Positions 4,352 through 48,166 of a stretch of 64,000 nt of DNA are shown piece by piece (the first letter of the stretch is position 1; each line of letters starts with the position of its first letter). Source of the DNA: Gammaproteobacteria bacterium (GTDB lineage Bacteria; Pseudomonadota; Gammaproteobacteria; Eutrophobiales; Eutrophobiaceae); contig WVYN01000014.1 in the NCBI GenBank assembly GCA_011772965.1, positions 161,002 to 225,001 on the forward strand, written 5' to 3'. Both the position numbers and the translations under genes were made by a program. The notes beneath the pieces are model-generated. The model had not been told where the DNA came from. It did not search any database and worked only from the letters and a program-made list of their open reading frames with translations.

Positions 4352-7300
4352 TCATGCCTTTGAATGTATGTTTATCTCACGCCATTGACCAAGTAATGGG
4401 AAATAGAGCCCGAGTTTGACCGGCCTGTTTTCCATAGCCTGCATCAGAACGGCATATTTTTTAAGTTGCGATGCATAACGTTCTTCTTCCTGATCGAGAA
4501 ACTCCTGTATGTCCGGTCCTTCGTGACGGCTGGTCTTATAATCAATAATCCAGCGCTGATCTTCGCTGTCAATGAAAGTGCGATCAAGGATAACATTCAC
4601 AACCCGGTTGTCGATGATCCCTGTCAGAGGTAGTTCACAGGTGGCCTGTTCATGGCGTGTATCTAGAATCCACCGTCCTTTTTCATCTGCTATGGTACTC
4701 GCAAGCGCCAGAATGACCTGATCTGTGGCCCAGTCTATGTCTTGCTGAGTAACACCGAGTTGTCTGAGGCTTGTTTCGAAACGAGTGGATTCTGAATTTA
4801 TATAGTCCTGTGTCCAGCGTTCAATTCCATCCTCTGCGATAATTTGCAGAAACCGGTGTACAACACTCCCGATGTGCATGATGGTTTCACCCGCCCATTC
4901 ATATTCCGGCATGACCTCTGGCATGGCAGAATAATCAAAGGACACGGGGACGCTGATGTCAGCAGGAGCATCCGGTAATCTCCAGTCTGATGTGAACCTG
5001 TGCAGGCCGCTGCTAATCACCTGTTGGTCCTGATTCACCTGGATTTGTGAATTTTGCCTGGTTGCGATAGCGAGCGCTTTATACTCTTCTTCAAGCACCG
5101 GCCAGAGATGCTTTAGCAGCGAATTTTTTCCGGGTCGCTTGCACTCGCCTGTCTCAGAATCAAGTGGAATGGCTGCGAAAAGATGAAGTTCCTGCCTTGC
5201 CCGGGTGGCGGCTACATATAACAGGCGACCTACTTCATGATCCTGTTTCTGTTTTTCAAGTTCATTCAAGTAATCATAGAATGGTGAATCATCGGAACCG
5301 GCAGGTTTTATCGGAGCCAGTAACAGGTCCTGATGCTGGACATGAGGAGATTCTGCCCATAATAGCAATTGTGATTCATTGCTCCTGCTTCCGCGGTGTA
5401 ATTCAGGCAAGATAACCATATCAAATTCAAGACCTTTTGCCTTGTGAATGGTCATGATTTGCAAACGGTCATCAACATGAGCGGGTAATGCAAATAGATT
5501 ATCCACCTGTTCCATGAATTGATTCGAGTCGGACAAGCGGCCGCCGACATCAAAGTCTTCCAGCAGATCGAAAAACACCTCAACATTTTCCAGCGCCGAT
5601 TCATCCTCCAACGTGGCCGGACCACCGAGATTCATCCATAACGACTCTACGGATCGTCGTAATGTTCTGCGACACCGTTGCTCAAGGGCATGTTGCAATT
5701 TCGGACCTATGGCTGCCAACCTGCTTCTCCCATCTGCCGACAGGCCTTTCATACGATCGGTAGCATTAATGGCCTCCCTGATTGTCAGTTGCGTTTTTTC
5801 TCCCACTAGCAACAGATCATCCAGCGTTATGCCACACCAGGGCGCCCTCAGGACAGCAAACCAGGCAATGCGATCTGCCGGATGATCCAGTGCCCGGGTC
5901 AGTGCCAACAGGTCCTGTATCTCGGGGCGGTGACTCAGCGGTTCGATCTCCACAGCATTGTATGCCAGGTTATTTGCTCTCAGATGAGTCGTGATCTCAA
6001 GCAAGTGACTACGATTACGAACTAGGATGGCCAGACAACGATCCGGATCTTGTCGCTGGCTGTTTTTTATCAATGCAGTAATACGTTTGGCTTCATCAAT
6101 TTCATCCAGAATTGCATGTGCCTGGACAGCAGTATGTTCTGTCTCGGGAAGAAAAGCCTGCGCTGGTTCATAACTGACAGCACCACGATAACTGTCAGCA
6201 AGATCCGGAAAAATTACCTCGAAGGCCCGGTTGACCCAATTGACGATGCCCGCCTGTGAACGGAAATTGACCTCGATTTTCAGTGGGTCAAGAGGTATCT
6301 GACCTAACCGTTTCTGTTTCCAGGTATTAATAAAAAGCCCAACCTCAGCTTCACGGAAACGGTAAATGGACTGCATGGGATCACCGACCAGGAACAGGGT
6401 ATGTCCGTCACCGGGGGACCAACCTGCCGTCAGTTTCTCAATCAGCTTGTACTGGTTATTCGAGACGTCCTGAAATTCATCGATTAACAGGTGTTTGATA
6501 CGGTAATCCAGGCGCAAGGCCAGATCCGTCGGATTATCATCCTGCCCCAGGGCATCTATAGCGGCCAGCATAATACCGTTGAAATCTATTTGATTGCGTT
6601 CTGCAAACAACACTCGCAAGTGGCTATCTGCCATAAGTAACAACTCACACAGGGCCTTGACTATTTGCCATTCATCTTCAGCAAAATGCAATGGGGGCAA
6701 CAAGTGGATCTCAACCAGTCCCTCACTCAGTGACTCGTCACCGGATAGCCGTGACAACAAACTCTGTAACCCATCTTTCATCTCTTTACGATTCTCGGTT
6801 TCAGCTGAGTTAGCTTCAGGTTTTGGAAAACCGATCGTCTTGTCGACACGCTTGCGCCATTGATTCGCTCCAGTCAGACATAAATTGGCAATAGCCCGCC
6901 AGACAGGCAGGTCTGTTGCCGTGCTGCCGGGGAACTGAGTAATATCACGGCATTGAGCGATGGCTGATTCCGGCTTGTCAGCATATAGATTGCTCGCCGC
7001 GTAACGCAGGTATTGCAAAATTTCATTCTGGTACACCTGCGGAAACCGGGCAGCGATATTTTCCAGTGTCGAGGCAACGGCATGTTGAAAGGCGGTTTCC
7101 AGTTCCTGCCGATCAATTTCCCTGCCAATATGGCGTAACCACTGGTCCCGTCTTTGCAGCAATGTTGCGATCATGGCTTTAACTCTGGGCAGATCATTAT
7201 CCAGATGCGAAAGTAACCTGGCGACCGCTTCAGACCAGTACTCCCCGCTCTCCAGATCTGTAAGAGTATTGGCCGCGGCCTGGTGATAGATCTCCGTGGC

Positions 7301-12005: not shown

Positions 12006-12908
12006 GTGAGTAAAATTACCGATTCTGAGTGGATATTCGGGGCCATCTTCCTTCTGGCCTTTGGTTTCTTTGCGTATATTGATTTCTACCTTGCAAACGA
12101 AATCACAACATCCATATCCTATGTTTCCTTGTTAGGGTTTGGTCTGCTGGCACACTCAAAAAGATTAACACTGATCATTGGTTTGACCGGTATCCTGGCA
12201 ACAATGGCTGGAATGTATTTCATTCCTTCTGAGCTGGTGGATACTACCAACCGTCAGCTGGTCATTATTGCTATTTTCACCATTACCATCACCAGTCACA
12301 TCTTCATGGAAAGGCAACAGGCCTTTGAACATAGCCTGTTCAAGATTGCCAGTACCGATTCATTGACCGGTATCGCCAATCGGAGAAGTTTGATCAACGA
12401 TATCGAACAACGATTGTCAGAGTCTCTGAGATATAAAAAAGATCTGTCATTATTATTGTTCGATCTGGACAACTTCAAAACCATCAATGACAAGTTTGGC
12501 CATCTTGCAGGTGATGAAATCCTCAAGAAAATTACGGAAATTTGTCAAAAGTGGCTTCGTACCACGGATGTGATCGGTCGTTTTGGCGGGGAAGAATTCA
12601 TGGTTATATGTCCCAATACTCCGCTCAGCGGCGCATTGACACTGGCAGACAGAATCAGGGTGGCTGTGCAAAATGCAGCTTTTCGCTTTGAAAATGACAT
12701 CATTAAGATCACTGTTAGTATCGGGGTGACTGAGCTCAGAACCCACCTAAATAAAGGTTCACAATCCTCTATCAAGATGCAGTTATCCCACCACCTGATT
12801 GATGCAGCAGATACTGCACTCTATAACGCCAAGTCGGCAGGTAAAAATTGTGTCGTTGCCTTTGATCCTGACCATGACAAGGTTACTGAAGAAACAGTGA
12901 CTGTCTGA
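12006..12908 (+). CDS. Membrane-anchored diguanylate cyclase (GGDEF domain)
   Basis: N-terminal TM helices precede a GGDEF domain containing RFGGEEF with an intact GGEEF active site. Confidence 0.75.
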   Translation: MSKITDSEWIFGAIFLLAFGFFAYIDFYLANEITTSISYVSLLGFGLLAHSKRLTLIIGLTGILATMAGMYFIPSELVDTTNRQLVIIAIFTITITSHIFMERQQAFEHSLFKIASTDSLTGIANRRSLINDIEQRLSESLRYKKDLSLLLFDLDNFKTINDKFGHLAGDEILKKITEICQKWLRTTDVIGRFGGEEFMVICPNTPLSGALTLADRIRVAVQNAAFRFENDIIKITVSIGVTELRTHLNKGSQSSIKMQLSHHLIDAADTALYNAKSAGKNCVVAFDPDHDKVTEETVTV

Positions 12909-16839: not shown

Positions 16840-18879
16840 ATGCCCGAGCAACCACGAAAGATGCTGGTAACCAGCGCCCTGCCCTATGCCAATGGCCCTA
16901 TCCATATTGGCCACCTGGTTGAGTATATCCAGACGGATATCTGGGTTCGCTTCCAGAAAATGCGCGGGCATGAATGCTACTATGTCTGTGCCGACGATGC
17001 CCACGGAACACCAATCATGCTGCGTGCCCAGCAGGAAGGGATCTCGCCCGAGACCCTGATTGCCAGGGTCAAAAAGGAACACGAGGAGGACTTTGCCCGT
17101 TTCGCTGTTGCCTTCGACAATTACCACACCACGCATTCCGATGAAAACCGTGAATTATCGGAACTTATTTATGAGCGATTATTGGCAGGGGGTCATATCT
17201 CAAGGCGAATAATAAAGCAGGCCTATGACCCGGCCAAAAATATATTTTTGCCTGACCGCTTCATTCGTGGTGCATGTCCGAAGTGTGGTGCCGCTGACCA
17301 GTATGGCGACAGTTGTGAGGTTTGCGGCGCAACCTATTCACCAACAGAACTCAAAAACCCGGTTTCTGCAATCTCCGGTGTCACACCTGTAGAAAAGGAG
17401 TCAGAACATTACTTTTTTAAACTGGCAGATTTCGAATCCAGTCTGAAGGATTGGACCCGGGGGGGACATTTACAGGAGGAAGTCAGTAATAAACTGGATG
17501 AATGGTTTGATACCGGCCTGCAGGAGTGGGACATCTCGCGGGATGAACCCTATTTTGGCTTTCGGATTCCGGGTACTAAAGACAAGTATTTTTATGTCTG
17601 GCTGGATGCCCCAATCGGCTACCTGGCGAGTTTTAAAAACCTGTGTGATCGCAGCAGTCTCAAGTTTGATGAGTTTTTCCTGAAGGAAAGCTCTACCGAG
17701 CTCTATCACTTTATAGGTAAGGACATCATTTATTTCCATGCCTTGTTCTGGCCGGCCATGCTGGAGGGCAGTAAGCTCAGAACACCCACAGCGATTTTTG
17801 CGCATGGCTTTTTGACCATACACGGCCAGAAAATGTCCAAGTCTCGTGGTACCTTTATTATGGCGAAGACCTATCTGGACCACCTGGATCCACAATACCT
17901 GCGTTACTACTTTGCTGCGAAGCTGGGCAGCGGAATCGATGATATCGATCTGAGCTTTGATGATTTCAGTTTCCGGGTAAATTCTGATCTGGTTGGCAAG
18001 GTGGTCAATATTGCCAGTCGCTGTGCCGGTTTTATTAACAAGCGATTTGAGGGCAAACTTTCAGTCGAGAATCATAATCCGGAATTGCTTGAAAGCTTTA
18101 TTGGCGCCGGTGAAAAAATTGCGATGCTATATAAGTCTCGTGAATACGCAAGGGCAATGCGAGAAATTATGGCCCTTGCCGACAAGGCTAATCAGTACAT
18201 TGATGAACACAAACCCTGGGTCATAGCCAAAGACCCGGCACGTGAAGCGGAACTGCAGTCAATTTGCAGTATGGGGATAAACTTATTCAGATACCTGCTG
18301 CTCTTTCTGAAGCCAGTACTTCCGGTAATGGCGGAACAAGGTGAGGCATTTCTTGGCATCAAGCCATTAAAATGGAAGGATATTGACTATCCGTTGTATG
18401 ATCACACCATTAACCCTTTCAAACCGCTGATGCAGCGTGTGGACAAGGAGAAAATACAAGCCATGATTGATTCAAGCAAAGATGACCTGTTAAAGAACTC
18501 CGCTGACAAAGCCAATTCTGACTCCGGTTCTTTGGTCAAAAACGCGATTGCAGATGAAATTACAATTGATGATTTTGCAAAGATTGATTTACGGGTAGCA
18601 AAGATCACCAGGGCAGAATACGTTGAAGGGGCCGACAAACTCCTCCGCTTGACCCTGGATATCGGTGAAGAAACCCGTAATGTCTTTGCCGGAATAAGGT
18701 CAGCCTACCAACCTGAAGACCTGGAAGGTAAACTGACAGTTATGGTTGTCAATCTTGCACCACGAAAAATGCGCTTTGGTATATCCGAGGGCATGGTGCT
18801 GGCTGCAGGGCCCGGTGGAGAGGATCTGTATATTCTCAGCCCGGATTCAGGCGCAATTCCCGGGATGAAAGTAAAATGA
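16840..18879 (+). CDS. metG: Methionine--tRNA ligase
   Basis: It has the HIGH motif (PIHIGHL) and KMSKS, a Zn knuckle CPKCG...CEVCG, and a C-terminal tRNA-binding EMAP domain. The start is moved to the MPEQPRK methionine, after which the protein aligns with MetG. Confidence 0.85.
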
Positions 18880-18888
18880 CCGGGCCAA

Positions 18889-19464
18889 ATGTCTGACTTT
18901 CTACTTATTCTATTCAGCACGGTATTCGCCAATAACATAATTATTCAGCATCTTGTCGGTGCTGATCCCGCATTGGCAATGCAACGCAGGGAACAGGTTG
19001 CTATTGATGTCTCGTTAGTCATGGTTTTATTGCTGCCTCTCGTCACATTGTCCGCTTACCTGCTTCACTCCCTGGTTATTCTGCCATTACAGCTTGATCA
19101 TTTATGGCTGTTGATCCTTGTCATGTTGATACTCTGCCTCGCCATGCTGCTGAAAATTGTTATTAGGCATGTTTCCAAAAGCTTGTCAGACAGGATAAAT
19201 GACCTGTTGCCTTATGCGGGGATCAATACCACTGTGCTGGGCACCGTACTTTTATTTCTACCAAGCAAGACGGGTATTATCCATGCCTTTGCCTATGGGT
19301 TGGGTACTGCATTTGGTTTCGGGCTGGTGCTGCTTCTCCTTACAGCTGTCAGTGAGAGGCTGGAAGGTGCAGAGGCCCCTGCGCCATTCAGGGGAATGCC
19401 ACTGCATTTGATCTCACTGGCGATTGTTGCTATGGCCTTTCAGGGTTTTGCCGGGATGTTCTAG
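18889..19464 (+). CDS. rnfA: Rnf electron-transport complex subunit A
   Basis: It aligns with RnfA/RsxA along its length and ends ...APAPFRG...GFAGMF. Confidence 0.75.
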   Translation: MSDFLLILFSTVFANNIIIQHLVGADPALAMQRREQVAIDVSLVMVLLLPLVTLSAYLLHSLVILPLQLDHLWLLILVMLILCLAMLLKIVIRHVSKSLSDRINDLLPYAGINTTVLGTVLLFLPSKTGIIHAFAYGLGTAFGFGLVLLLLTAVSERLEGAEAPAPFRGMPLHLISLAIVAMAFQGFAGMF

Positions 19465-19465
19465 A

Positions 19466-19972
19466 ATGATGACCGGCCTGTTAATTATCCTGATGTTATC
19501 AATATCTCTCGCGATCCTGGCTGAGAATTCAAGGATAGGCAGTGAAATATTATCTTTAGAAAAAACAGACCGAATAAATATACTTCTTCCACAAACACAA
19601 TGTGGACAATGCGGATTTGATGGATGCGAACCCTATGCTACTGCAATAGCTGAAGGTATTACCGCCATTAATCAATGCCCCCCAGGCGGTAACATTACAA
19701 GTAGAGAATTATCCCGGTTAACTGGTAGTGAATACCAGGCACTTAATCCAGCTCGGCAAAGTGAACCTTTAGCAAAAACTGCACTGATTGATGAAGAGCT
19801 CTGTATTGGTTGTGTCAAGTGTATCAGTGCTTGCCCAGTTGACGCGATCGTTGGCGCGCCTAAACAGATGCATACTGTTATACCGGAGCTATGTACCGGG
19901 TGTGAATTATGTATAGCGCCTTGTCCGGTAGACTGTATCGAAATGGAGCCAAAATCCCGGATTCAGATATGA
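19466..19972 (+). CDS. rnfB: Rnf complex subunit B (polyferredoxin)
   Basis: The motif CGQCGFDGCEPYA precedes 2x[4Fe-4S] CxxCxxCxxxCP motifs. The start is placed just after the rnfA stop. Confidence 0.75.
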   Translation: MMTGLLIILMLSISLAILAENSRIGSEILSLEKTDRINILLPQTQCGQCGFDGCEPYATAIAEGITAINQCPPGGNITSRELSRLTGSEYQALNPARQSEPLAKTALIDEELCIGCVKCISACPVDAIVGAPKQMHTVIPELCTGCELCIAPCPVDCIEMEPKSRIQI

Positions 19973-21492
19973 GCTCTACCGATATACATTCATTTCATGG
20001 TGGCCTGAAACTCGAAACATACAAATCCCTGTCCAACAATTTATCATCATTAATTTCTCCACTGCCTGATAAAATCATACTTCCACTGAAACAACATATC
20101 GGGCATCCGGCTAATCCACTGGTAAAAATCGGAGAGCAGGTATACAAGGGACAAATTATTGCTGAGCCGGATGGATACGTCAGCCTGCCTGTACATGCAA
20201 CTACATCGGGTAAAATAAGGGACATTGGTCTTTATAGCGTACCGGATCCCCTCGGTATCAAGGCACCCTGTATTGTTATAGAACCGGATGGAATGGACAC
20301 CTGGATAGATATCCGTGGTGTGGATAACTATCTGGAAATGGATCCGGTCACATTGCAAAACAGGTTCAGGGATGCCGGTATTTCGGGCCTGGGGGGAGCG
20401 GGATTCCCTGCACATGTTAAATTGAAAGAAGGTACACAAACCGAGGTTGAATTATTAATAATCAACGCCGTTGAATGTGAACCTTATATTACCTGTGATG
20501 ACAGATTAATCCGGGAAAAACCAGATTATATCGTTGCCGGTACAAGAATGATACTTCATGCCGTACAGGCCAGAAAATGCATCATTGCTATAGAAGAAGA
20601 CATGCCGGATGCTGTTAATGCCCTATTACCATTACTTGATGATGATATTGAACTGGTAAAAGTACCGACTATTTATCCGCAAGGCAGCGAAAAACAACTC
20701 ATCAAGACATTGACTGGAAAGGCGGTACCAAGTGGTGGACTGCCGATACATATGGGTATTGTGATGCATAACGTCGGCACAGCAGCTGCAGCCTACCGGG
20801 CCGTATCACGTGGAGAACCTCTGGTATCAAGGTACATAACTGTAACCGGCTGCATACCCTCTCCGCGCAATCTCCAGGTGCTTATTGGCACTCCCGTCAG
20901 GCATTGTGCCGAGCAATGCGGATACAGTGAAAAATCCGGTAACAGTATCATACTCGGTGGACCCATGATGGGTACCCTCGTGCAGAACATGCATGTACCA
21001 GTCATCAAAACGACACATTGCATATTGATAAGAAATAAACTCAATCAGGGAACCGAAATGCCATGTATCCGTTGTGGAAATTGCGCTGAGGTTTGTCCGG
21101 TTGAATTACTACCACAACAACTTTACTGGTTCTCACGCTCCAGCGACCACAATAAATTAAAACAACATCATCTCTTTGAATGCATAGAATGTGGCTGTTG
21201 CTCCTATGTCTGTCCCAGTAATATCCCACTCGTGCATTATTACAGACTGGCCAAGAATGAAATCAACCAGCGTGACTTATCTATAACTAAGGCATCAGAG
21301 TCAAGATATCGTTATCTGAAACATCAGGAACGATTGAAACATGAAAAAAAGAAAAAAAAATTAAGCGTGGAACAACTTTCCATTTCTGGAAAACCTAATG
21401 AAAAAAAAGCATATATACATGAGGCGGTAAGACGGGGCCGAGCAAAAAGGGTAAAAAAACAACAGGTAAGAAAAGATCAGAAAGATGAGTGA
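19969..21492 (+). CDS. rnfC: Rnf complex subunit C (NADH-binding, 2x[4Fe-4S]) with a Lys-rich C-terminal tail
   Basis: It has SGLGGAGFP and the cluster motifs CIRCGNCAEVCP and CIECGCCSYVCP. Its ATGA overlaps the rnfB stop. Confidence 0.75.
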   Translation: MSSTDIHSFHGGLKLETYKSLSNNLSSLISPLPDKIILPLKQHIGHPANPLVKIGEQVYKGQIIAEPDGYVSLPVHATTSGKIRDIGLYSVPDPLGIKAPCIVIEPDGMDTWIDIRGVDNYLEMDPVTLQNRFRDAGISGLGGAGFPAHVKLKEGTQTEVELLIINAVECEPYITCDDRLIREKPDYIVAGTRMILHAVQARKCIIAIEEDMPDAVNALLPLLDDDIELVKVPTIYPQGSEKQLIKTLTGKAVPSGGLPIHMGIVMHNVGTAAAAYRAVSRGEPLVSRYITVTGCIPSPRNLQVLIGTPVRHCAEQCGYSEKSGNSIILGGPMMGTLVQNMHVPVIKTTHCILIRNKLNQGTEMPCIRCGNCAEVCPVELLPQQLYWFSRSSDHNKLKQHHLFECIECGCCSYVCPSNIPLVHYYRLAKNEINQRDLSITKASESRYRYLKHQERLKHEKKKKKLSVEQLSISGKPNEKKAYIHEAVRRGRAKRVKKQQVRKDQKDE

Positions 21493-22495
21493 TTCGGCCC
21501 GGTTCAGCTCATTCCATGTAAGTGACAAGTCTTCTGTCCGGACGATCATGCTCCAGGTCAGTATTGCTCTCGTGCCTGGAATCCTGTGTTATGCATGGAT
21601 TATGGGCTGGGGCGTCATCTTGCAGTGTCTTTTGGCCATCTTATTTGCAACTACCCTGGAGTCCATCGTCCTCCTCATCAGACGCATACCTGTAAAAGCG
21701 TTTCTATTTGATGGCAGCACAGTCGTAACAGCATTATTATTTGCTATTTGCCTGTCACCTTATGCCCCCTGGTGGGCAAATCTGGCCGGCATTGCTTTTG
21801 GTGTTGTCGTCATAAAGCACTGCTATGGTGGTCTTGGACAAAATATATTTAACCCTGCCATAGCTGGCTATGTGTTCACACTCCTGTGTTTTCCGATGGA
21901 ACTATCCATTTACCCGGACCCGGGCAATTACCCGGGATTTCTGGATACCATCAGGATTATCAATGGCAATTTTCCACATTACCCGGACGCAATAGCTGGG
22001 GCGACTGTTCTTTCAACATTAAAATCCGGCCTGCATGACATGAAGATGATTTCTGAAATCAGTCAATCTCCGGTATTTGGAGTACTGGCAGGAAGAAGTA
22101 CAGAGTGGATTGCAGCTCTCTGGTTTGCAGGAGGAATCTTCCTGATAGTCCGCAAGATAATTAAATGGCAGGTACCTGTTGTCTTTCTGGGCACCATGTT
22201 TCTAATTAGCCTTGTATTTTACTGGTTCGACAGTAGTCATTATCCTTCTCCTGTTTTTACCCTGTTTGCAGGTGGCAGCATGCTCGCTGCGTTTTTTATT
22301 ATTACTGAACCCGTATCCTCATCCACCACGCCTGCAGGCCGCCTGTTATTCGCAGCAGGTACAGCTATTTTCGCTTATATCATCAGAACCTGGGGTAATT
22401 ATCCAGATGGAATTGCCTTTGCGGTATTAATAATGAATTTTTCAGCACCTTTACTAGACCGCTTGACCAGGCCCCGGGTACTGGGGGAAAGATGA
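21485..22495 (+). CDS. rnfD: Rnf complex subunit D (NqrB-like membrane subunit)
   Basis: The 336-aa polytopic membrane protein resembles RnfD/NqrB and overlaps rnfC by 8 bp. Confidence 0.7.
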   Translation: MSDSARFSSFHVSDKSSVRTIMLQVSIALVPGILCYAWIMGWGVILQCLLAILFATTLESIVLLIRRIPVKAFLFDGSTVVTALLFAICLSPYAPWWANLAGIAFGVVVIKHCYGGLGQNIFNPAIAGYVFTLLCFPMELSIYPDPGNYPGFLDTIRIINGNFPHYPDAIAGATVLSTLKSGLHDMKMISEISQSPVFGVLAGRSTEWIAALWFAGGIFLIVRKIIKWQVPVVFLGTMFLISLVFYWFDSSHYPSPVFTLFAGGSMLAAFFIITEPVSSSTTPAGRLLFAAGTAIFAYIIRTWGNYPDGIAFAVLIMNFSAPLLDRLTRPRVLGER

Positions 22496-23121
22496 CATTC
22501 CCACAAAGAAAAGTGTTTATTCCGATGCTAATCACCGCAACTATATGCGCTGGCCTGATAATCTCTTTACATATCGCCAGTAAAGATGTCATTAAAAAAA
22601 ACAAGCAACAATACATTCTAAAAGCTACAAATGGCATGTTAACTGTAGAATATGACAATCTTATTTATGACGATTACATGGAAATTAACAATCCCGCTTT
22701 ATCAGGGGATGGCTCTATTACACGTGTTTATCGGGCAATGAAAGACGGAACCGGGATGGGGGTTCTGTACATGCCGGTCGTAACAAAAGGTTACATTGGA
22801 CCGGTATCGCTTGCCATAAGTATATCACGTGATGGTCGTATTATGTCGGTCAGAGTAATCAAGCAGAAGGAATCCAGAGGGCTGGGGGCTGAAATAGATC
22901 AGAATAATTCGGACTGGATCACACAATTCTACGGCTTGTCTTTAAAAGATGTTCCTTCAGAATACTGGCGGGTTGGATCAGAACCAGGAAAATTTGATGT
23001 AATCAGTGGGGCAACGATCTCATCGCGTGCAGTTACCGAAGCAATCAGGGAAACTCTTGAACACTACAATAAAAATAATGATATACTTTATAAAGTAGAA
23101 ATTGAAAGAGATCCATTGTGA
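22492..23121 (+). CDS. rnfG: Rnf complex subunit G (FMN-binding)
   Basis: It has a single N-terminal TM helix and an FMN_bind domain containing the SGATISS flavinylation motif. It overlaps rnfD by 4 bp. Confidence 0.7.
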   Translation: MTFPQRKVFIPMLITATICAGLIISLHIASKDVIKKNKQQYILKATNGMLTVEYDNLIYDDYMEINNPALSGDGSITRVYRAMKDGTGMGVLYMPVVTKGYIGPVSLAISISRDGRIMSVRVIKQKESRGLGAEIDQNNSDWITQFYGLSLKDVPSEYWRVGSEPGKFDVISGATISSRAVTEAIRETLEHYNKNNDILYKVEIERDPL

Positions 23122-23807
23122 GCCTTGTCAACAAAACCAGAGATAAAACTGAACAAATAATAAAGTATCTTCGTTCACATCCTGATTTCTTTCAGGAGAA
23201 CCCTGACATACTCGCTAATATCAACATACCTCACCTGCCTGATCAGGAAGTAAGTTCTATGCTTGAATACCAGGTGCAGCGGCTCAGGCATCAGGTGTCT
23301 GAAACAGAAACAAAAATTGAGATATTAGAAAAACAGGCGAGTGTTAATAGTCTGTTTGTTGATGATGTACTTTCCTTCTCTCTTGGCTTGTATGACTGCA
23401 GTGATTTAAGGGAACTTTCAACGTTACTCTCAAATGGTATGGGTCAATATTATTCTGCTGACATATCATCTTTAATAATCTTTTCAGAGCCAAGTGGAGG
23501 ACTTGATCTGATTATCTATGATATTGAACCTGTGAGTGACAAAATCAGATTTATGTTTACTGAGCTATTTCACAGAAACAAGCCCCTGTGCGACAGTCTT
23601 CAGGAAGAGCATCTCAATACCCTGTTCGATATTGATACAGATAATATTTGTTCTACAGTGATCTTGCCGTTACAAGGAAAAGGCTGGCGTGGGCTCATCG
23701 TCCTGGGATCCCAAGAACCTAATTGCTATAAACAAGGCATTGAACTGGAGATGCTCGCTTACCTCAGTAAGCTGGTTCAAATGAAGGTTGATCATATCCT
23801 TGCCTGA
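23118..23807 (+). CDS. DUF484 (YigA-like, GAF-like) family protein translationally coupled to rnfG in the position normally held by rnfE
   Basis: YLRSHPDFFQENPDIL...IPH resembles the YigA N-terminus. The protein is soluble and GAF-like rather than a membrane RnfE. It overlaps rnfG by 4 bp. Confidence 0.6.
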   Translation: MSLVNKTRDKTEQIIKYLRSHPDFFQENPDILANINIPHLPDQEVSSMLEYQVQRLRHQVSETETKIEILEKQASVNSLFVDDVLSFSLGLYDCSDLRELSTLLSNGMGQYYSADISSLIIFSEPSGGLDLIIYDIEPVSDKIRFMFTELFHRNKPLCDSLQEEHLNTLFDIDTDNICSTVILPLQGKGWRGLIVLGSQEPNCYKQGIELEMLAYLSKLVQMKVDHILA

Positions 23808-24059: not shown

Positions 24060-25295
24060 ATGTTGGCAAACGACAACAACCCGGCCCCCGTGGATATGGG
24101 TAACCTCAAAATCATGGTCGTCGATGATGATCCCGTTATCCTGCAACTTGCAAAAAAAATCCTGCGGGAATCAGGTGCCAGGAATATTGACACAGCCTGT
24201 AATGGTCTCGAAGCTATTGCCAGCTTATCAAGGTCTGCTCCCCAAGAGTATGACATCGTGCTTTGTGATCTGAACATGCCGGAAATGAATGGCGTTGAAT
24301 TATTGAACGAGATAGCAAAAAACGGATATAACGGAGGGATTCTTATACTGAGTGGCGAAGAGGACAGATTGCTTGAATCAGCTTATGAGCTTGCCAAAGC
24401 TCATAATCTGAACATAATTGGTGCCATATCAAAAGATTTATTAATATCCGAGATCGTAAACAAGATCCAGGAAAACTATCAACCTTATCATGTCGATGTA
24501 GATCCCAGTAATGATGAAGCGATATCTATCAATGAACTGGAATCAGGTATTAGTAGCCATCCAAATTCCCTTTTACTCTATTACCAGCCCAAAGTTTCAA
24601 TTATTGATCAAACCATCAAGGGCATTGAAATTCTTTCAAGATGGCAGCACCCGGAGAGAGGAACATTACTGCCTTCTGCTTTCATCCCCCTGGCTGAGGA
24701 ATGCGGGCTGATTCATGACCTGACATTTGCTATATATAAAAAAGCATTAAAACAAATCAGTCAATGGCAAAAGTCAGGAATTTATATTGATGCCTCAATT
24801 AATATATCAGTCAATTCATTCGCTTCCCCAGATTTTTCCAGTTTCCTGATTGCTACTGCTGAAAAATTTAATGTGGATATATCCCGAATTATTCTTGAAG
24901 TTACTGAAAGTGAGATCATGCAGGACACAATCCGCTGCATGGAGATCATGATGAATCTCAGAATGAAAAAATTTGGACTTTCAATTGATGATTTCGGTAC
25001 TGGTCATTCTTCTATGGAGAAGCTCAAGATAATACCGTTTACAGAACTTAAGATTGACCGAGCTTTTGTCAGGGATGCTGATAAAAGTTCAACTGCTAAA
25101 TTTATTGTTGAGTCCAGTATTGAGCTGGCCAAAAAACTGAATATGAAGATTGTTGCAGAGGGCGTTGAAAACCGAAAAAACTGGATGATGGTCGAACAAA
25201 TGGGATGTGACCTAGCCCAGGGTTTTTATTGTGGCGCCCCCATGTCAAACCCGGATCTCATTGACTTTATAAAATACTGGAAAGGTCCTCACTGA
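24060..25295 (+). CDS. Response regulator (REC domain) fused to an EAL c-di-GMP phosphodiesterase domain
   Basis: The REC domain has MVVDDD...CDLNMPEMNG. The EAL domain has the EAL-type motif IDDFGTGHSS. Confidence 0.75.
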   Translation: MLANDNNPAPVDMGNLKIMVVDDDPVILQLAKKILRESGARNIDTACNGLEAIASLSRSAPQEYDIVLCDLNMPEMNGVELLNEIAKNGYNGGILILSGEEDRLLESAYELAKAHNLNIIGAISKDLLISEIVNKIQENYQPYHVDVDPSNDEAISINELESGISSHPNSLLLYYQPKVSIIDQTIKGIEILSRWQHPERGTLLPSAFIPLAEECGLIHDLTFAIYKKALKQISQWQKSGIYIDASINISVNSFASPDFSSFLIATAEKFNVDISRIILEVTESEIMQDTIRCMEIMMNLRMKKFGLSIDDFGTGHSSMEKLKIIPFTELKIDRAFVRDADKSSTAKFIVESSIELAKKLNMKIVAEGVENRKNWMMVEQMGCDLAQGFYCGAPMSNPDLIDFIKYWKGPH

Positions 25296-27774: not shown

Positions 27775-27864
<90 letters not shown>

Positions 27865-27960
27865 ATATACCCATGGAGATGTATACATTATAAGCCGAGA
27901 AGTCCATGGATCGACGGGAGCGGTCTCCTTCTCAGCCAAGCGGATGACCAAGAATTCATA

Positions 27961-28629
27961 ATGGTTTTCATGAAATTCCGATTTTGTTTAGGTTTTTTTC
28001 TATTAATCATGCAGCAGCTTGCAGTTGCTGATTCAGTTAATTTTTATGATTATGATGAAGTCGCATCAAAGATTTTCTGGAATGAACTCTATAATGGTCA
28101 AGGTTGGACTTTGTATTGTGGATTACGACTTGCATCAATTCCTTCGCTGACCATATCCGGAATGACAGTATCGATTGAACATATATATACCAGTAATCGT
28201 ATGGTCCAGGCACTCGGTTGCCACAGTCGTCAACAATGCTATGAGAATAATCCCGACTTCAGGATCATGGAATCTGATCTGCATAATCTTTATCCTGTGT
28301 GGATTGACGCAAGCAATGCCTTATATGACAGTGAATACGGCATTATCGAGGGAGAGTACTGGCGCTTTGAAAATTGTGATCTCGAGCGTAAAAAGGGTGT
28401 TGTTGAACCCAGGCCGGTTGCCAGGGGCAACATAGCCCGTGCAATATTCTATATGCATAATACATATAATCTGCCGGTTTCAGAACAGACAATTGAAATT
28501 CTCAAGACATGGAATCTGGCAGACCCACCCAGCAAGCAGGAGATCAGGCGCAATGAAAAGATCCAGAAACTACAGGGCCGGCGTAATCCCTATATTGATA
28601 AACCTTCATTGGTTACGACATTAAAATGA
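27961..28629 (+). CDS. Extracellular/periplasmic endonuclease I family DNase
   Basis: It has a signal peptide and resembles EndA/Vvn, with RGNIARAIFYM and an N-terminal EHIY. The start is moved to 27961 to clear the tRNA. Confidence 0.65.
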   Translation: MVFMKFRFCLGFFLLIMQQLAVADSVNFYDYDEVASKIFWNELYNGQGWTLYCGLRLASIPSLTISGMTVSIEHIYTSNRMVQALGCHSRQQCYENNPDFRIMESDLHNLYPVWIDASNALYDSEYGIIEGEYWRFENCDLERKKGVVEPRPVARGNIARAIFYMHNTYNLPVSEQTIEILKTWNLADPPSKQEIRRNEKIQKLQGRRNPYIDKPSLVTTLK

Positions 28630-29681
28630 CACTACACAGGGGTCGTTTATTTGTAAACACCTGCCTGATAATCCTGGGCCTCTTGTTTGTTATTACTGCT
28701 TGCGGGAAAAAAACGGGTCAGAAAGATTTTCTCACGCTCACCGGCCTTACCATGGGGACAAGTTATAGCGTCAAGATTATTTATGATGATAAACCGCAGG
28801 AAAAAGCAATCAGGGGTGATATCGACAAGATTCTCGAATCGATCAATCGTAGTATGTCGACCTATATGGATGATTCAGAGTTGTCCAGAATAAACCAGGC
28901 GGCTGCTAATACATGGATTCCGGTATCGAACGATTTGTTTTCTGTTTTAGAGGCCGCAAGGGGAATCGGAAGGAGAAGCAATGGGTCATTCGATGTAACA
29001 GTGGGACCTCTGGTAAATCTCTGGGGATTCGGCCCTACAGAGCGGCCAATCAAACCACCTCCTGCCAGCAGGATCAGTAAATTGCTTGAAACGACTGGCT
29101 TTGAACGATTTGCCCTGGATAAGAAAACGCAGGCCATCAAGAAATCCGCAGATTCCGTCTATATCGATCTATCCGGGATAGCCAAGGGATACGCGGTAGA
29201 CAGGGTATCAAGCTTGCTCTTGGCTAAGTACCAACTGGCTGATCATCTGATCGAGATTGGTGGTGAGGTTAAGGCCTCCGGTCACAACCAGGCAGGAAAC
29301 AAATGGCAAATTGGCGTCGAAAGACCAGACTACACAAAGCGCACGATCCACAGGATCATCGGTCTTGAGGATCTGGCCATGGCCACTTCCGGTAATTACC
29401 GGAATTACTATGACCTTGAAGGAAAGCGTTATAGTCATACCATTGATCCACAAACTGGCTATCCAGTTGACCATCTGCTGCAGTCGGTCAGCGTACTCCA
29501 TGAGAGTGCCATGATAGCGGATGCCTGGGCAACCGCACTTCTTGTCATGGGTACCGAGAAAGCCAAGCTCCAGGCGGAAGAACTGACCCTGCCAGTACTT
29601 ATGGTCAGCAAAACCATGGACGGCAAGCATCGTGAAATCATGAACAATCATTTCAAAAAACATCTCGTAACAACCCATTAA
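28626..29681 (+). CDS. apbE: FAD:protein FMN transferase ApbE (lipoprotein)
   Basis: It has an ITAC lipobox, the motifs DLSGIAKGYAVD and MIADAWATAL, and is 351 aa. Confidence 0.8.
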   Translation: MTLHRGRLFVNTCLIILGLLFVITACGKKTGQKDFLTLTGLTMGTSYSVKIIYDDKPQEKAIRGDIDKILESINRSMSTYMDDSELSRINQAAANTWIPVSNDLFSVLEAARGIGRRSNGSFDVTVGPLVNLWGFGPTERPIKPPPASRISKLLETTGFERFALDKKTQAIKKSADSVYIDLSGIAKGYAVDRVSSLLLAKYQLADHLIEIGGEVKASGHNQAGNKWQIGVERPDYTKRTIHRIIGLEDLAMATSGNYRNYYDLEGKRYSHTIDPQTGYPVDHLLQSVSVLHESAMIADAWATALLVMGTEKAKLQAEELTLPVLMVSKTMDGKHREIMNNHFKKHLVTTH

Positions 29682-30050: not shown

Positions 30051-30533
30051 ATGCCCTCATTCGACATCGTATCCGAGATCGATATGCATGAACTCAGTAA
30101 TTCAATTGACCAGGCCAACCGGGAAATTACCAACCGATTTGATTTCAAGGGTACGAATTCAAGGGTGGAGTTGAAGGAAAACATCATCACTTTGGTGGCA
30201 CCTGCCGAATTCCAGATAAAACAAATTGAAGACATTCTAACCACGAAGATGTCAAAACGTGGTATAGATATTAAATGCCTCGAAAAGGGTGAGGTTACAG
30301 AAAATATTAACGAAGCCAAGAAGGCCATTACTGTCCGTCAGGGGATTGATAAAGAACTGGCAAAGACACTGGTAAAGCTGGTAAAAGATACCAAACTCAA
30401 GGTTCAGTCATCAATCCAGGGAGAACAGGTGCGGGTCACAGGTAAAAAGCGCGACGATTTGCAGGAGGTAATCCAGATGCTTAAAAACAGCAAGCTGGAT
30501 TTCCCGCTGCAATTCACCAACTTCAGGGACTAA
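30051..30533 (+). CDS. yajQ: YajQ family (UPF0234) nucleotide/c-di-GMP-binding protein
   Basis: MPSFDIVSEIDMHEL..REITNRFDFKG is the canonical YajQ N-terminus. The protein is 160 aa. Confidence 0.8.
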   Translation: MPSFDIVSEIDMHELSNSIDQANREITNRFDFKGTNSRVELKENIITLVAPAEFQIKQIEDILTTKMSKRGIDIKCLEKGEVTENINEAKKAITVRQGIDKELAKTLVKLVKDTKLKVQSSIQGEQVRVTGKKRDDLQEVIQMLKNSKLDFPLQFTNFRD

Positions 30534-31078
30534 ATCTTTCCATCAAGCCCCATCTGATAGTATTTGTGGACAATTTCTTCCTGGTTTGCCAGTAACCAGT
30601 CAATGTCCGGTTCATTCTTCATGGCCTTCTCTATGGCATTGAAAGTAGCTTTCCGATGAATATCAAACAGGATTTTGTGATCAAGCTCTTCTGCATCGGC
30701 AACCATCGGGTTTAACCAGACCGAGACTATAATCCCGAGATCATTCGTTTTCGCTTTAGGAATAATACCTTCTCTGACTGTATCCAGAACACCGTTGGCT
30801 ATTGCTCCCTGTACTGTTCCCATGAGGATATTGGTATAACGCTCCTTGTTAACAGTCACCTTGCTAACCATCAAGGTAGCCGGCTTGACCATGATGTCGG
30901 TGTTCATAATCGCCAATACGCGTGAATGTCCCTTGACCTGGTCACCCAGTAATGTGGCAAAAGCCGTACCGACCGGCCCGTCCAGTTCGCCTATGATTAT
31001 TTCCGGCTCTGCCGCTGTCCCCTGAGGTCCTCCCGCAACCAATGCCTCGCCTACACGCATAACAATACGTTCACTCAT
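30530..31078 (-). CDS. fae: Formaldehyde-activating enzyme (Fae / Fae-like; 5,6,7,8-tetrahydromethanopterin hydro-lyase family)
   Basis: The 182-aa protein aligns with Fae, sharing VGEALVAGG, NTDIMVKPATLM and EGIIP. It is convergent with yajQ with overlapping stop codons. Confidence 0.65.
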   Translation of the reverse strand: MSERIVMRVGEALVAGGPQGTAAEPEIIIGELDGPVGTAFATLLGDQVKGHSRVLAIMNTDIMVKPATLMVSKVTVNKERYTNILMGTVQGAIANGVLDTVREGIIPKAKTNDLGIIVSVWLNPMVADAEELDHKILFDIHRKATFNAIEKAMKNEPDIDWLLANQEEIVHKYYQMGLDGKI

Positions 31079-31140: not shown

Positions 31141-33693
31141 TTAGTCTTTTTTACTCAGTTGGGAATGAATATCTTCGAAAAGATTATTCGTTGCGTTTTT
31201 TGCGGCCCTTCTCGCAGCCTCGGCTTTCTCCTTGATCCGCCTGACGTGTTCAGAGTGTGACATGACTCTCGTTTGTTTCGCCTCTTCCAGCAATTGCTCT
31301 TCATTAAAAGAAGCAAGATCTGCTGCCACCTGCTGATCCAGTATGTCATGCTTGGTTGACTGTACCTCCATTTCCCTGCGTTTAATTTCTGCTGTAGTTT
31401 CCAGGTTTACCTTGACTTGATGGGCATTTTCAAGGTTCTTCTCGGCCTGTAGCAACTTGTGCTCAGCCATCCGCATCGCCTCAGCTGCTTCCTCTCTGGC
31501 CTTTTCATCAAGGGCATCCGCCTGGGCAGCCCGGAGTTTCTGTGCCTCGAGGGCTGCTGCAGCCTTGGCTGCTTCGGCCTCTTTTCTGGTTTTATCTATC
31601 TTACTCAGCGTTTGTTTGATCTTGCCGGATTCCAGCTCCAGTTGTTTTCTTTCCTGTTCCAGCCGTGCCCGTTCTTTTGCTCGTTCCTTTTCAAACTGTT
31701 TTTTATACTCTTCTATGATTTTCTTTGCTTCTTCAGCCGCCGCCTTACGTGCCGCCTCAGCAGCAGTATTTTCCTTGTTGGCCTGGTCAATCTCGTTATT
31801 GGCCTTCATGAATTCTTCGGCCAGTTTTCGTCTTTCAGCTTCAAGCGTAGCCATTGCTTTGGTCTGGATTTCCTGTTCCATCTTGGATTGTTCTTCGCGT
31901 TTTCTGGCAGACTCATCTTCTAGGGCCTTGCGTGATTCTTCAAGCTTGCGTTTGACTTCATCGGCACTCTCTAATTTTTTCCTGGCTTCCTCGGCTTCTT
32001 TCTCTATTTTTTCGCGCTCCTTGCGTAGCTGCTCCTCTGCCTGCTCCTTCAATTTCTGGAGTTTTTCCATTTCCCGGGTGTTCTTGGTATAGATTTCCTC
32101 CAGTTTCTTCTTTTCTTCTGCTAGGCGCTTTTCGGTCTCTTCTTTAAGTTTTTCAATCTTCCGTGCTTCTTCTTCCCTGAATTTTCTGGTTTCTTCCTCG
32201 GCTGCTTTCTTCGCCTCGGCAAGTTGCTTACGTTCCTCTTCGAGTTGCCTTTTCTTCTCTCTTATCTCGGTGATATCTTCATCATCTTTCGCCCCGGACA
32301 GCTTGTTACTGGTACGTTCCAGTCTGATATCATTCAGGGTCATGTCTGCATCAAGTGCAGCTGAGCGAATGCTGGGATCATCGTCCTCAGTTTCCAATTG
32401 CTGATCTTGTACTGGCTCTGGTTTTGTTTCCGCCTTGGGTGCGGCCTCGGGCACGGGTTCCATGGTTTCAGGCTTTGCTTTTTGCCCAGCTTCAGCTTTT
32501 ACCCTCGGCCTGAGATTTACACCCTCACTGTCGTCTTTCCTGGGTACAGGCTTGGCTTCCGGTTTTTTCTCAGGTTCCGCTTTCTGTTTCGGCCGCAGGT
32601 TTACTCCGCTACTTTCGACATGTGATATCGACAATCCGCCTTTCAGGACACTGGCCTTAAAGCCATTGCTAATCATGGTAAATACCGCAGCCGAGCTGCG
32701 ACCACCGGAATCACAGCAGACAAGATAATGCTTGCTCCGGTCAAGACTATCCAGTTTTGCCCTTAGAAGATTGAAAGGAATATTGATACTGCCCTTGATG
32801 TTCGACTCCTCATATTCATCCTTGAAGCGCACATCCATCCAGACCGCGGCACCACTATCAACCAGGGATTTACCCTGTTCAAAGCTTATTTCGTTCAGTG
32901 ATGGTAATGTGACCAGAGTAATGAAATTTTCCTTGCTAAGTTTCATCAAGGTGCCATCGGTCAACATGGTGACAGAGGCATTTCTGGTTCCATCTGTCAA
33001 TAAGGCCTCTTCCCCGAAACTGTCCCCGTCTTTAAGTTCCGCCAGCTTGATCGGTTTCGCGCCTTCTGAGGGGGCGCGGGAAACTTCACAATGACCTTCC
33101 TGGACGATGTAATAACTGTCTCCCGGCTCTCCTTGCTCGATAACCGTATCTCCGGCCTTGTAGTCAATGGGTTCGAGCATGACAAACAGCTGTTGAATAT
33201 TGGCGGTAGGTAACTGGCTAAAGATTTCTGATTGCAACATCTTGGTCATCCAGTCAACGGTATCATCCTGATCGATTTCGTTAACAACAAAGTGCCGACT
33301 GGTGGTGATGTCACCTTCTTCAGATTTGTCGGCAACCAGGATTCGGTCAATTGCAGCCTTGTCCAGTTGCAGAACCATGGAATCCACTTTGGCCCTGGCA
33401 GTGAACTGGCGTGGCAAGAGGCGGGCCATTGCATAACGGGCACTGTCAGTACCACCGACGATGGTACTTTTCACATCTCTGCCCGCCATTAAATCAATCT
33501 TGCCTTCCAGCAGGTAAAAGGCGTAATTGTCATGGTCCCCTTGTTTGAAGACAATATCCTTATTCTTGAACTTGAAGATCTTGCCTATCTGGACGATCTC
33601 ATTCTGTGCCTGGGGAGATATTTCATCGAAAGGCACCAGCGACTTGATCTTCTCCTTGTATGGAGCCTTGTCCTGTTCTTTATTGAATATCAT
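31141..33693 (-). CDS. Large multidomain protein: two cNMP-binding domains, a rhodanese domain with an active-site Cys, a Pro/Lys-rich linker with a tandem repeat, and a roughly 430-aa E/K/R-rich coiled-coil or single-alpha-helix C-terminal region
   Basis: It has two cNMP-binding folds (..GDSFGEEALL..), the rhodanese loop YLVCCDSGGRSS, repeated GVNLRP[KR].KAE..K.KPE units, and then hundreds of residues of EEARK/KLKE periodicity. It is 850 aa. Confidence 0.7.
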   Translation of the reverse strand: MIFNKEQDKAPYKEKIKSLVPFDEISPQAQNEIVQIGKIFKFKNKDIVFKQGDHDNYAFYLLEGKIDLMAGRDVKSTIVGGTDSARYAMARLLPRQFTARAKVDSMVLQLDKAAIDRILVADKSEEGDITTSRHFVVNEIDQDDTVDWMTKMLQSEIFSQLPTANIQQLFVMLEPIDYKAGDTVIEQGEPGDSYYIVQEGHCEVSRAPSEGAKPIKLAELKDGDSFGEEALLTDGTRNASVTMLTDGTLMKLSKENFITLVTLPSLNEISFEQGKSLVDSGAAVWMDVRFKDEYEESNIKGSINIPFNLLRAKLDSLDRSKHYLVCCDSGGRSSAAVFTMISNGFKASVLKGGLSISHVESSGVNLRPKQKAEPEKKPEAKPVPRKDDSEGVNLRPRVKAEAGQKAKPETMEPVPEAAPKAETKPEPVQDQQLETEDDDPSIRSAALDADMTLNDIRLERTSNKLSGAKDDEDITEIREKKRQLEEERKQLAEAKKAAEEETRKFREEEARKIEKLKEETEKRLAEEKKKLEEIYTKNTREMEKLQKLKEQAEEQLRKEREKIEKEAEEARKKLESADEVKRKLEESRKALEDESARKREEQSKMEQEIQTKAMATLEAERRKLAEEFMKANNEIDQANKENTAAEAARKAAAEEAKKIIEEYKKQFEKERAKERARLEQERKQLELESGKIKQTLSKIDKTRKEAEAAKAAAALEAQKLRAAQADALDEKAREEAAEAMRMAEHKLLQAEKNLENAHQVKVNLETTAEIKRREMEVQSTKHDILDQQVAADLASFNEEQLLEEAKQTRVMSHSEHVRRIKEKAEAARRAAKNATNNLFEDIHSQLSKKD
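32507..32620 (-). repeat. Imperfect tandem repeat of about 84 bp within the Pro/Lys-rich linker of the cNMP/rhodanese protein
   Basis: cggcctgagatttacaccctcactgtcgtc at 32507 matches cggccgcaggtttactccgctactttcgac at 32591. This repeat encodes the duplicated peptide GVNLRP. Confidence 0.5.
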
Positions 33694-40386: not shown

Positions 40387-40993
40387 AAAAATATTATTTA
40401 TTTGCTTACTCACTACTGTGACCTTTTGTGGCTTGTGGCAGGTAGGTCATGGTGCCTACATCCATGCCAAGGCAATCCTAGCGCAACTCCTCCTAGAGTC
40501 GGCATGGTCAGAAACACTGTCCGGGGCAAGGGAGGTGAAACCATGGCCCTGGGCAGATACCTGGCCAGTCAGCCGACTTGCTGCCCCACGCCTTGGGATA
40601 AGCCGCATCGTCCTGGCCGGGGCAAGTGGTGCTTCACTTGCCTTCGGTCCAGGACATCTTTTTGGTACGGCGCCCGCAGATCAAGCGGGAAACAGCGTCA
40701 TTGCCGGTCACAGGGATACACATTTTAGATTTCTGCAATACCTGACCGATGGCGATATATTGTTGCTTGAAACCAGTGAAGGAAAACAAAGACGATATCA
40801 GGTAACACTTACCCGGGTTATCCATGAAAGTGAAATCGGCTACCTGCAGCAGACCAGAGAAAATCGCCTGACGCTTATTACCTGTTTTCCCTTCAACAGC
40901 CCGGTGGCCGGTGGTGCACAACGATATATTGTCATTGCCCGGGAAATCGAGAAGGTAGATGGGATTGATTCCGGGGCAATAATTGCCATCTAG
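40370..40993 (+). CDS. Sortase (proteobacterial/marine type transpeptidase)
   Basis: It has an N-terminal TM anchor, the catalytic His in AGHRDTHF, the catalytic Cys in LTLITCFP, and a downstream Arg. It overlaps the target gene by 17 bp. Confidence 0.75.
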   Translation: MFIPTEKILFICLLTTVTFCGLWQVGHGAYIHAKAILAQLLLESAWSETLSGAREVKPWPWADTWPVSRLAAPRLGISRIVLAGASGASLAFGPGHLFGTAPADQAGNSVIAGHRDTHFRFLQYLTDGDILLLETSEGKQRRYQVTLTRVIHESEIGYLQQTRENRLTLITCFPFNSPVAGGAQRYIVIAREIEKVDGIDSGAIIAI

Positions 40994-46507: not shown

Positions 46508-46584
46508 TGGCGCTCCCGGCAGGACTCGAACCTGCAACCCTCGGGTTCGAAGCCCGATACTCTATCCAGTTGAGCTACGGAAGC
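46508..46584 (-). tRNA. tRNA-Arg (anticodon TCG)
   Basis: The cloverleaf has an acceptor stem GCUUCCG/CGGGAGC, a 7-nt anticodon loop CU-UCG-AA, the T-arm GGTTCGAGTCC and an encoded CCA. Confidence 0.75.
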
Positions 46585-48154: not shown

Positions 48155-48166
48155 TGTTAGAGAAGG

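Follow-up and report, generated by a model that had tools for sequence, protein, structure and literature searches.

We analysed a window of 64 kb from a gammaproteobacterial genome (assembly GCA_011772965.1, contig WVYN01000014.1, positions 161,002 to 225,001; "the window" hereafter means this whole stretch of DNA) that carries, at positions 18889-23807, an operon for the Rnf electron transport complex without rnfE. The operon encodes RnfB, RnfC, RnfD and RnfG together with a divergent RnfA (hereafter RnfA*), in which both cysteine (Cys) ligands of the intramembrane iron-sulphur (Fe-S) cluster are replaced, and it ends in a gene for a protein of the DUF484 family. With a probability that we put at roughly 60%, the locus encodes a lineage-specific and functional Rnf derivative, RnfA*BCDG, that has been remodelled to operate without the RnfA/RnfE electron relay. 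The arrangement of the locus is unlikely to reflect decay or a chance event in one genome.

RnfA*, RnfE and the remaining subunits

In the canonical complex a mid-membrane [2Fe-2S] cluster is held by four Cys, two of RnfA and two of RnfE, and relays electrons from RnfB to the periplasmic flavin mononucleotide (FMN) of RnfG; in the reviewed literature this intramembrane relay is called strictly conserved (2025 review, PMC12174285). RnfA* was compared by alignment to E. coli RsxA, to metagenomic homologues and to the RnfA chains solved in 9ERI, 8AHX and 7ZC6, and both RnfA ligand positions were found to be replaced in the window: the motif GLCP has become GADP, with aspartate (Asp26) at the first Cys site, and TNCAVLG has become INTTVLG, with threonine (Thr114) at the second. 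Among the related loci examined, this pair represents the only conserved Cys lost from the complex. Asp at the former first Cys position is invariant in the clade to which RnfA* belongs and is therefore best regarded as a gained constraint rather than the product of drift; the second position is occupied by a variable small or hydrophobic residue.

RnfA* passes only the broad Pfam family PF02508 and fails the curated RnfA thresholds, scoring 110 bits against a cut-off of 229.3 for TIGR01943, i.e. about half of the threshold, and 116.8 bits against a cut-off of 240 for NF003481 (RsxA). RnfA alone is accelerated here, although it is normally the most conserved subunit. Its identity is 94% within the canonical gammaproteobacterial sequences and 64% between gamma- and betaproteobacterial ones, compared to 33-36% between variant and canonical sequences, while for RnfB, RnfC, RnfD and RnfG the identities between variant and canonical proteins (36-50%) are near those among canonical proteins (41-54%). 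Similarly, 32% of the 72 columns that are invariant in canonical RnfA are still invariant in the clade, vs. 54-82% for the other subunits.

RnfA* aligns over its full length with the solved RnfA chains, and its predicted model (predicted local distance difference test, pLDDT, 78) exhibits the six-helix fold, with template-modelling (TM) scores of 0.64-0.73 to 8AHX_A, 7ZC6_A and 9ERI_A. Both half-helix break motifs, G-x-D-P and N-x-x-V-L-G, are kept. The bias of lysine plus arginine (K+R) between the two membrane sides, calculated on identical loop definitions for all three groups, is +5 to +8 in RnfA* (+7 in the window), +3 to +5 in canonical RnfA, where one open reading frame (ORF) with an N-terminal extension gave 0, and -4 to -11 in canonical RnfE; the orientation of RnfA* appears to be fixed and of the RnfA type. 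An ancestral-type dual-topology homodimer of RnfA* in place of the A/E pair was considered and is ruled out by the positive-inside rule, since the bias is not near zero.

A protein collection, species-representative genomes and metagenome contigs all yielded homologues that share these substitutions, and three gammaproteobacterial metagenome-assembled genomes (MAGs) are involved, SZUA-592, RIFCSPLOWO2_12_47_11 and NC_groundwater_1108. Both Cys are present in 114 of the 142 distinct RnfA sequences that were placed in a rough neighbour-joining tree. The 25 sequences with Asp at the first site all group together there, in a single clade with 27 members. This Asp clade has T, V, A, S or I at the second site, and Cys is retained at that site in an early-looking member, L102. 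Cys-less RnfA with Asp thus appears to constitute a single clade of uncultured gammaproteobacteria, all of whose sequences come from MAGs or metagenome contigs. The closest canonical relatives share the metG-rnfA synteny, with metG first and then rnfABCDGE(-nth), and the ancestor is therefore taken to have been canonical, with this gammaproteobacterial gene order.

RnfE is encoded in none of the 13 distinct Asp-clade loci that extend at least 1.9 kb downstream of rnfG, compared to all 85 distinct canonical loci. Searches of the window with tblastn, using E. coli RsxA, E. coli RsxE and RnfA* as queries, yielded no second gene of the Rnf-Nqr family, i.e. no RnfE or NqrD paralogue, and a position of rnfE elsewhere in the window is thereby ruled out. 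The set of six subunits A, B, C, D, G and E is incomplete in the operon as well as in the window as a whole.

The other subunits retain their cofactor sites. Each of the five clade members examined has Cys at all 12 columns where this residue is invariant in canonical RnfB, and all nine invariant Cys columns of RnfC are kept in every member examined; the Fe-S motifs of both proteins and the NADH/FMN domain of RnfC are thus present. The flavinylation motifs of RnfD (DAIAGAT) and RnfG (DVISGAT) are intact, conserved across the clade and in agreement with the ApbE motif Dxx[s/t]gAT. A flavin transferase is also available: the window has apbE about 5 kb downstream of the operon, and an Endonuclease_1-ApbE pair is likewise found downstream in L167. 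ApbE would flavinylate RnfD and RnfG.

Ratios of nonsynonymous to synonymous substitution rates (dN/dS) were obtained by the Nei-Gojobori method as pairwise averages over clade pairs with unsaturated dS (0.4-1.7). They amount to 0.09-0.18 for rnfA*, 0.08-0.24 for rnfB, 0.07-0.14 for rnfC, 0.05-0.11 for rnfD, 0.08-0.19 for rnfG, 0.10-0.16 for DUF484 and 0.06-0.08 for metG. Every gene, including rnfA* and DUF484, is under purifying selection. A pseudogenised operon is made improbable by the intact ORFs, the conserved cofactor residues and the overall dN/dS of 0.05-0.24.

In two E-less loci, L094 and L105, rnfC is deleted. L094 retains a 44-codon N-terminal rnfC stub (7113-7247) with rnfD directly after it, and L105 shows a clean deletion (2833-2867) that leads from rnfB straight to rnfD. 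In both loci rnfA*, rnfB, rnfD and rnfG are intact, with dN/dS of 0.10-0.21, and coupling to NADH through the RnfC module therefore appears to be dispensable in some lineages.

Operon layout and the DUF484 gene

ORFs were called over the window and the encoded proteins were matched to Pfam and NCBIfam families. Seven co-directional genes, from metG to DUF484, are tightly packed on the forward strand; they are given here together with the more distant apbE (position, strand, product and family match).

About 16861-18879, +, metG: methionine-tRNA ligase (NCBIfam NF001100, 983 bits); the start was adopted from the gene call in locus L001
18889-19464, +, rnfA*: divergent RnfA of 191 residues (PF02508, 80.5 bits)
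19466-19972, +, rnfB: membrane-anchored Fe-S subunit (TIGR01944, 197 bits against a cut-off of 68.7)
19969-21492, +, rnfC: NADH/FMN-binding subunit with two [4Fe-4S] motifs (NF003454, 625 bits; RnfC_N and Complex1_51K; also above the cut-off of TIGR01945)
21485-22495, +, rnfD: membrane flavoprotein subunit of 336 residues (TIGR01946, 343 bits)
22492-23121, +, rnfG: periplasmic FMN-binding subunit (TIGR01947, 121.6 bits against a cut-off of 102)
23118-23807, +, DUF484: YigA-like protein of 229 residues with a GAF fold and a GTG start (PF04340, 99.8 bits against a cut-off of 24.2)
28626-29681, +, apbE: flavin transferase (PF02424, 296 bits)

The gap between rnfA* and rnfB is 1 nucleotide (nt), provided that rnfB starts at the ATG at 19466, an alternative to the TTG at 19424 with which its longest ORF begins. 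ATGA overlaps are found at the rnfB/rnfC and rnfD/rnfG junctions, and rnfC and rnfD overlap by 8 nt. The 4-nt overlap of rnfG and DUF484 has the sequence GTGA, the start codon of DUF484 being the GTG at 23118; this start was chosen because the first in-frame ATG does not occur before codon 48 and the Pfam domain extends from residue 11. Translational coupling of rnfG and DUF484 is predicted for the lineages of the window and of L168 at least. On the 3' side of DUF484 a gap of 252 nt precedes a gene for a response-regulator-EAL protein. Scans for promoters and terminators over the operon yielded nothing beyond the shuffled expectation. The spacer between metG and rnfA* is 9 nt in the window (18879-18889) and 3-45 nt in several clade members, compared to about 190-315 nt in canonical gammaproteobacterial relatives, which suggests that a promoter or regulatory region of the variant operon itself has been lost and that the operon may be read through from metG.

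A preliminary description of this stretch had reported the genes A, B, C, D and G followed by DUF484 in tight packing and had pointed out that rnfE was missing from the operon. The ORFs, the family matches and the junction sequences bear out the former, and the absence of rnfE extends by tblastn to the whole 64 kb. The 4-bp overlap given there for rnfG and DUF484 is likewise present, but its sequence is GTGA and not, as stated, ATGA.

The Pfam domain PF04340 covers residues 11-223 of the DUF484 protein, which aligns along its length with the P. aeruginosa structure PDB 3E98 ("GAF domain of unknown function"; E = 3.5e-19) and can thus be assigned to the family and its GAF fold. With 70 bits it misses the cut-off of 254 for PRK10963, an NCBIfam equivalog, and is therefore a member of the family but not the equivalog of E. 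coli YigA. It has no transmembrane segment and, being a soluble GAF-like protein rather than a six-helix membrane subunit, cannot stand in for RnfE. The gene for the E. coli protein lies within dapF-yigA-xerC. Neither xerC nor dapF was found in the window, and distant DUF484 homologues (at most 34% identity) are not located beside xerC, so that an ordinary xerC-linked yigA is ruled out. The protein shares the full-length Pfam match and the family-wide motif N-K-P-L-C-x-S-L with other YigA/DUF484 proteins such as 3E98, and it differs from them in its position directly after rnfG, seen in the window as well as 10 further lineages. The Cys of this motif was considered as an Rnf-specific redox feature and rejected, as it is invariant in non-Rnf DUF484 proteins and in 3E98 too.

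DUF484 stands directly after rnfG on the same strand in 11 of the 13 clade loci and in none of the 85 canonical loci, the spacing in the 11 lineages ranging from -4 to about +130 nt. Every DUF484 homologue with at least 35% identity to the window protein and a visible context follows rnfG, while those at 31-34% identity stand alone in unrelated neighbourhoods. Because the context splits at about 35% identity, the Rnf-linked DUF484 proteins can be regarded as an orthologous group that has remained attached to the operon through deep divergence. This synteny makes a functional link between DUF484 and Rnf plausible.

An atypical complex was one of the options offered by the preliminary description, and it is now strongly supported by an RnfA* without both Cys and by an E-less layout that is conserved under selection in a monophyletic clade. 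The accompanying suggestion of DUF484 as a new Rnf partner has fared less uniformly. Lack of the rnfG-DUF484 adjacency in all relatives had been named beforehand as the observation that would speak against it, and the adjacency is instead kept in 11 of the 13 lineages, down to 35% DUF484 identity; the synteny is thus conserved, but the partnership is putative and two lineages have no DUF484.

Neighbouring genes in the window

Several genes for cyclic-nucleotide signalling surround the operon. These include a GGDEF protein at 12006-12908 (+), the PvrR-like response-regulator-EAL phosphodiesterase encoded right after DUF484 at 24060-25295 (+), which is present in L007 too, and an 850-residue protein at 31141-33693 (-) with two cyclic nucleoside monophosphate (cNMP)-binding domains and a rhodanese domain. 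A formaldehyde-activating enzyme (Fae) is encoded at 30530-31078 (-) and a methylene-tetrahydromethanopterin dehydrogenase-like protein (Mpt_N) at 60247-61161 (-). These two genes point to a one-carbon (C1) pathway linked to tetrahydromethanopterin (H4MPT), and the host is probably a methylotroph. In L169 a stand-alone DUF484 homologue adjoins an Mpt_N gene.

Upstream of apbE, a tRNA-Ser(CGA) gene at 27775-27864 (+) overlaps the 5' end of the longest Endonuclease I ORF (27781-28629, +), and the start of the Endonuclease I gene therefore lies further downstream. This gene is followed directly by apbE with a 4-nt overlap, and the pair is conserved in L167. At 38263-40993 (+) a VIT-VWA domain protein of 707 residues and an overlapping sortase-domain protein are encoded, which look like a proteobacterial sortase/target pair. 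The region 47800-50000 has a GC content of 36.6%, compared to about 46% elsewhere, and contains one convincing ORF (48167-48619), encoding 150 residues with a signal-peptide-like N-terminus and without a family match. It is located near a tRNA-Arg gene (46508-46584) and a Rap1a-type type VI secretion system (T6SS) immunity gene (45175-45579), and may represent a small foreign island. The longest ORF at 57446-59362 (+) combines matches to major facilitator superfamily (MFS) transporters with a C-terminal Cache domain, and reflects either an unusual fusion or an ORF call that joins two genes.

Electron path, alternatives and significance

To our knowledge, all current structural mechanisms of Rnf and of the Na+-translocating NADH:quinone oxidoreductase (NQR) pass every electron through the [2Fe-2S] cluster of RnfA/E (NqrD/E). 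Ion pumping by these complexes is tied to a redox-driven inward/outward switch of the same cluster. As RnfE and the cluster ligands of RnfA are missing here, the only known route from RnfB via [2Fe-2S] to RnfG would be inoperative, and the canonical semicircular ferredoxin:NAD+ circuit would therefore be broken; the complex probably cannot work like the textbook Rnf. One half of the path would survive, leading from NADH through RnfC (FMN and two [4Fe-4S] clusters) and RnfD (riboflavin/FMN) to the FMN of RnfG, and RnfB with its three [4Fe-4S] clusters would survive as well. The complex may form a one-way link from a cytoplasmic donor, either NADH via RnfC or RnfB where rnfC is gone, to the periplasmic RnfG flavin, or may run in reverse. 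RnfA* would be a scaffold without cofactors that anchors RnfB, and its new invariant mid-membrane Asp may bind ions (H+ or Na+). DUF484 appears to have been recruited into the operon in this clade, to be co-inherited and probably co-translated, and most plausibly acts as a cytoplasmic regulatory, sensing or assembly accessory rather than as a replacement of RnfE.

Rnf operons without cluster ligands are not confined to this clade. An exhaustive HMMER search of 1.84 billion cluster representatives with an RnfA* profile gave 4,622 matches, and among the best 150 of these (P0125-P0272 among the representatives) 53 have both Cys and 97 do not show Cys at both positions, six of the latter being truncated at the first; the ranking is biased towards Cys-less, fast-evolving sequences and provides no frequency estimate. 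Other residue pairs seen at the RnfA ligand sites in the best 150 are SS, GS, DS, SC, GC, YS, NS and more. Locus L174 (10001-15128; NCBI DATJXP010000053; RnfA = P0160) encodes a complete rnfABCDGE in which all four ligand positions are non-Cys, with Gly and Ser in RnfA and two Ser in RnfE. Its subunits resemble those of canonical gammaproteobacterial Rnf more closely than those of the Asp clade, and it is therefore considered to have lost the cluster independently while keeping RnfE. The MAG of L174 is labelled Candidatus Acidoferrum sp., while its synteny (metG, APH kinase, nth) and best RnfE matches are gammaproteobacterial; the label may be wrong. One or both Cys are absent from seven of the 120 best RnfE homologues, which, taken together with L174, show that such operons recur. 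The clade studied here is one step beyond loss of the cluster, having dropped RnfE as well.

We tentatively propose a fuller version of this model, in which RnfA*BCDG, usually accompanied by DUF484, functions by a new mechanism as a membrane redox module. Without the RnfE/[2Fe-2S] relay, it would connect cytoplasmic NADH or Fe-S donors with a periplasmic flavin as a one-way conduit, the Asp would handle ions, DUF484 would be a dedicated regulator or sensor, and the whole would belong to a wider, so far unrecognised set of cluster-less Rnf systems.

Several points weigh against a functional RnfA*BCDG. The full cluster set of RnfB is hard to explain without an electron partner across the membrane, and this is the weakest point of the model. 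The break motifs and the one-sided K+R bias indicate that RnfA* should not form an antiparallel homodimer, which would leave the packing partner of its inner helices unexplained. The search for RnfE covers the window and the flanks of the clade loci, and rnfE, nqrD or another partner may lie elsewhere in the genome. Loss of rnfC in two lineages could equally reflect slow decay of the system. The two E-less lineages L006 and L105 have no DUF484, and synteny, the type of evidence at hand for this protein, does not support its physical contact with the complex. Finally, support comes from MAG and metagenome sequence throughout, and expression and activity of the complex are predictions.

Alternatively, a divergent, Cys-less RnfE* (or a borrowed NqrD) encoded elsewhere may pair with RnfA*, resulting in a six-subunit cluster-less Rnf as in L174. 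Cluster-less A/E pairs do exist, as L174 and the RnfE homologues without one or both Cys indicate, and the fixed RnfA-type topology of RnfA* appears to need an oppositely oriented partner. However, no such gene occurs in the window or in the 8-10 kb flanks of the 13 clade loci, and L174, with its closer relationship to canonical gammaproteobacterial Rnf, represents an independent event and not a sister state, so that this explanation is unlikely. A canonical Rnf, whose rnfE has moved elsewhere in the genome and whose rnfG is followed by DUF484 by accident, is a good deal less credible. It is true that the search for RnfE in the host's own genome spans 64 kb of a contig that reaches 361,766 bp and that both the fold and the broken-helix motifs, by which RnfA normally packs against RnfE, are preserved in RnfA*. 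Nevertheless, a relocated canonical RnfE could contribute only two of the four Cys after loss of the RnfA* ligands, RnfA is the fastest-evolving subunit here and normally the most conserved one, rnfE is kept in the operon in each of the 85 canonical loci, and the adjacency of DUF484 across deep divergence argues against accident. The notion of a decaying, functionless Rnf relic, in which piecemeal loss took first the cluster, then rnfE (absent from all clade loci) and then rnfC (deleted in L094 and L105, with the stub in L094), is the least probable of all, as at least 13 lineages, with 41-62% RnfA identity to the window, have all remaining genes as intact ORFs, dN/dS is low in the rnfC-less lineages too, every cofactor-binding residue of RnfB, RnfC, RnfD and RnfG is conserved, and the invariant Asp26 speaks for a gained constraint.

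A remodelled RnfA*BCDG can be compared with three known systems. It resembles Rnf/RsxABCDGE (structures: A. vinelandii 8AHX, A. woodii 9ERI, C. tetanomorphum 7ZC6) in its order A-B-C-D-G after metG, as in canonical gammaproteobacteria, and in that its RnfB, RnfC, RnfD and RnfG exceed the NCBIfam subfamily cut-offs and keep the Fe-S Cys and flavinylation motifs; it differs in having neither RnfE nor the RnfA ligands, in carrying DUF484 in place of rnfE-nth and in the dispensability of rnfC in some members. Na+-NQR (NqrABCDEF) is likewise an Rnf derivative, in which NqrA, the RnfC homologue, lost all cofactors yet stayed in the complex (PMC12174285), but it retains the NqrD/E pair and the [2Fe-2S] cluster, exactly the module lost in the window locus. 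The closest published idea concerns the partial "NQR/RNF-like" systems of Actinobacteria and the candidate phyla radiation (CPR), where a fusion of RnfD with NqrF (PF00175) lies next to an FMN-binding or ApbE gene and for which the authors inferred that electrons flow in one direction, to an extracytosolic flavin (Meheust et al. 2021, eLife, PMC8238504). The path of RnfD/NqrB plus an FMN-binding domain as the single transmembrane electron path is shared with the window, where, in contrast, RnfD is unfused (PF03116 only), RnfB, RnfC and a cofactor-less RnfA* are kept and the host is a gammaproteobacterium. Because the RnfD-NqrF fusion is absent, the locus falls outside that group. No description of an E-less or Cys-less Rnf, or of a link between DUF484 and Rnf, was found in the searchable literature.

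DUF484/YigA is a widespread GAF-like family for which we know of no function, and the locus provides a first contextual lead for it. Annotation pipelines would label the locus "Rnf electron transport complex" and thereby imply ferredoxin:NAD+ coupling in metabolic models of these MAGs, which are probably from methylotrophs; the implied coupling is probably wrong. If the complex is functional, its subunits can do something other than what is ascribed to them in the textbook Rnf, and the clade would represent a natural dissection of the machine into two half-paths.

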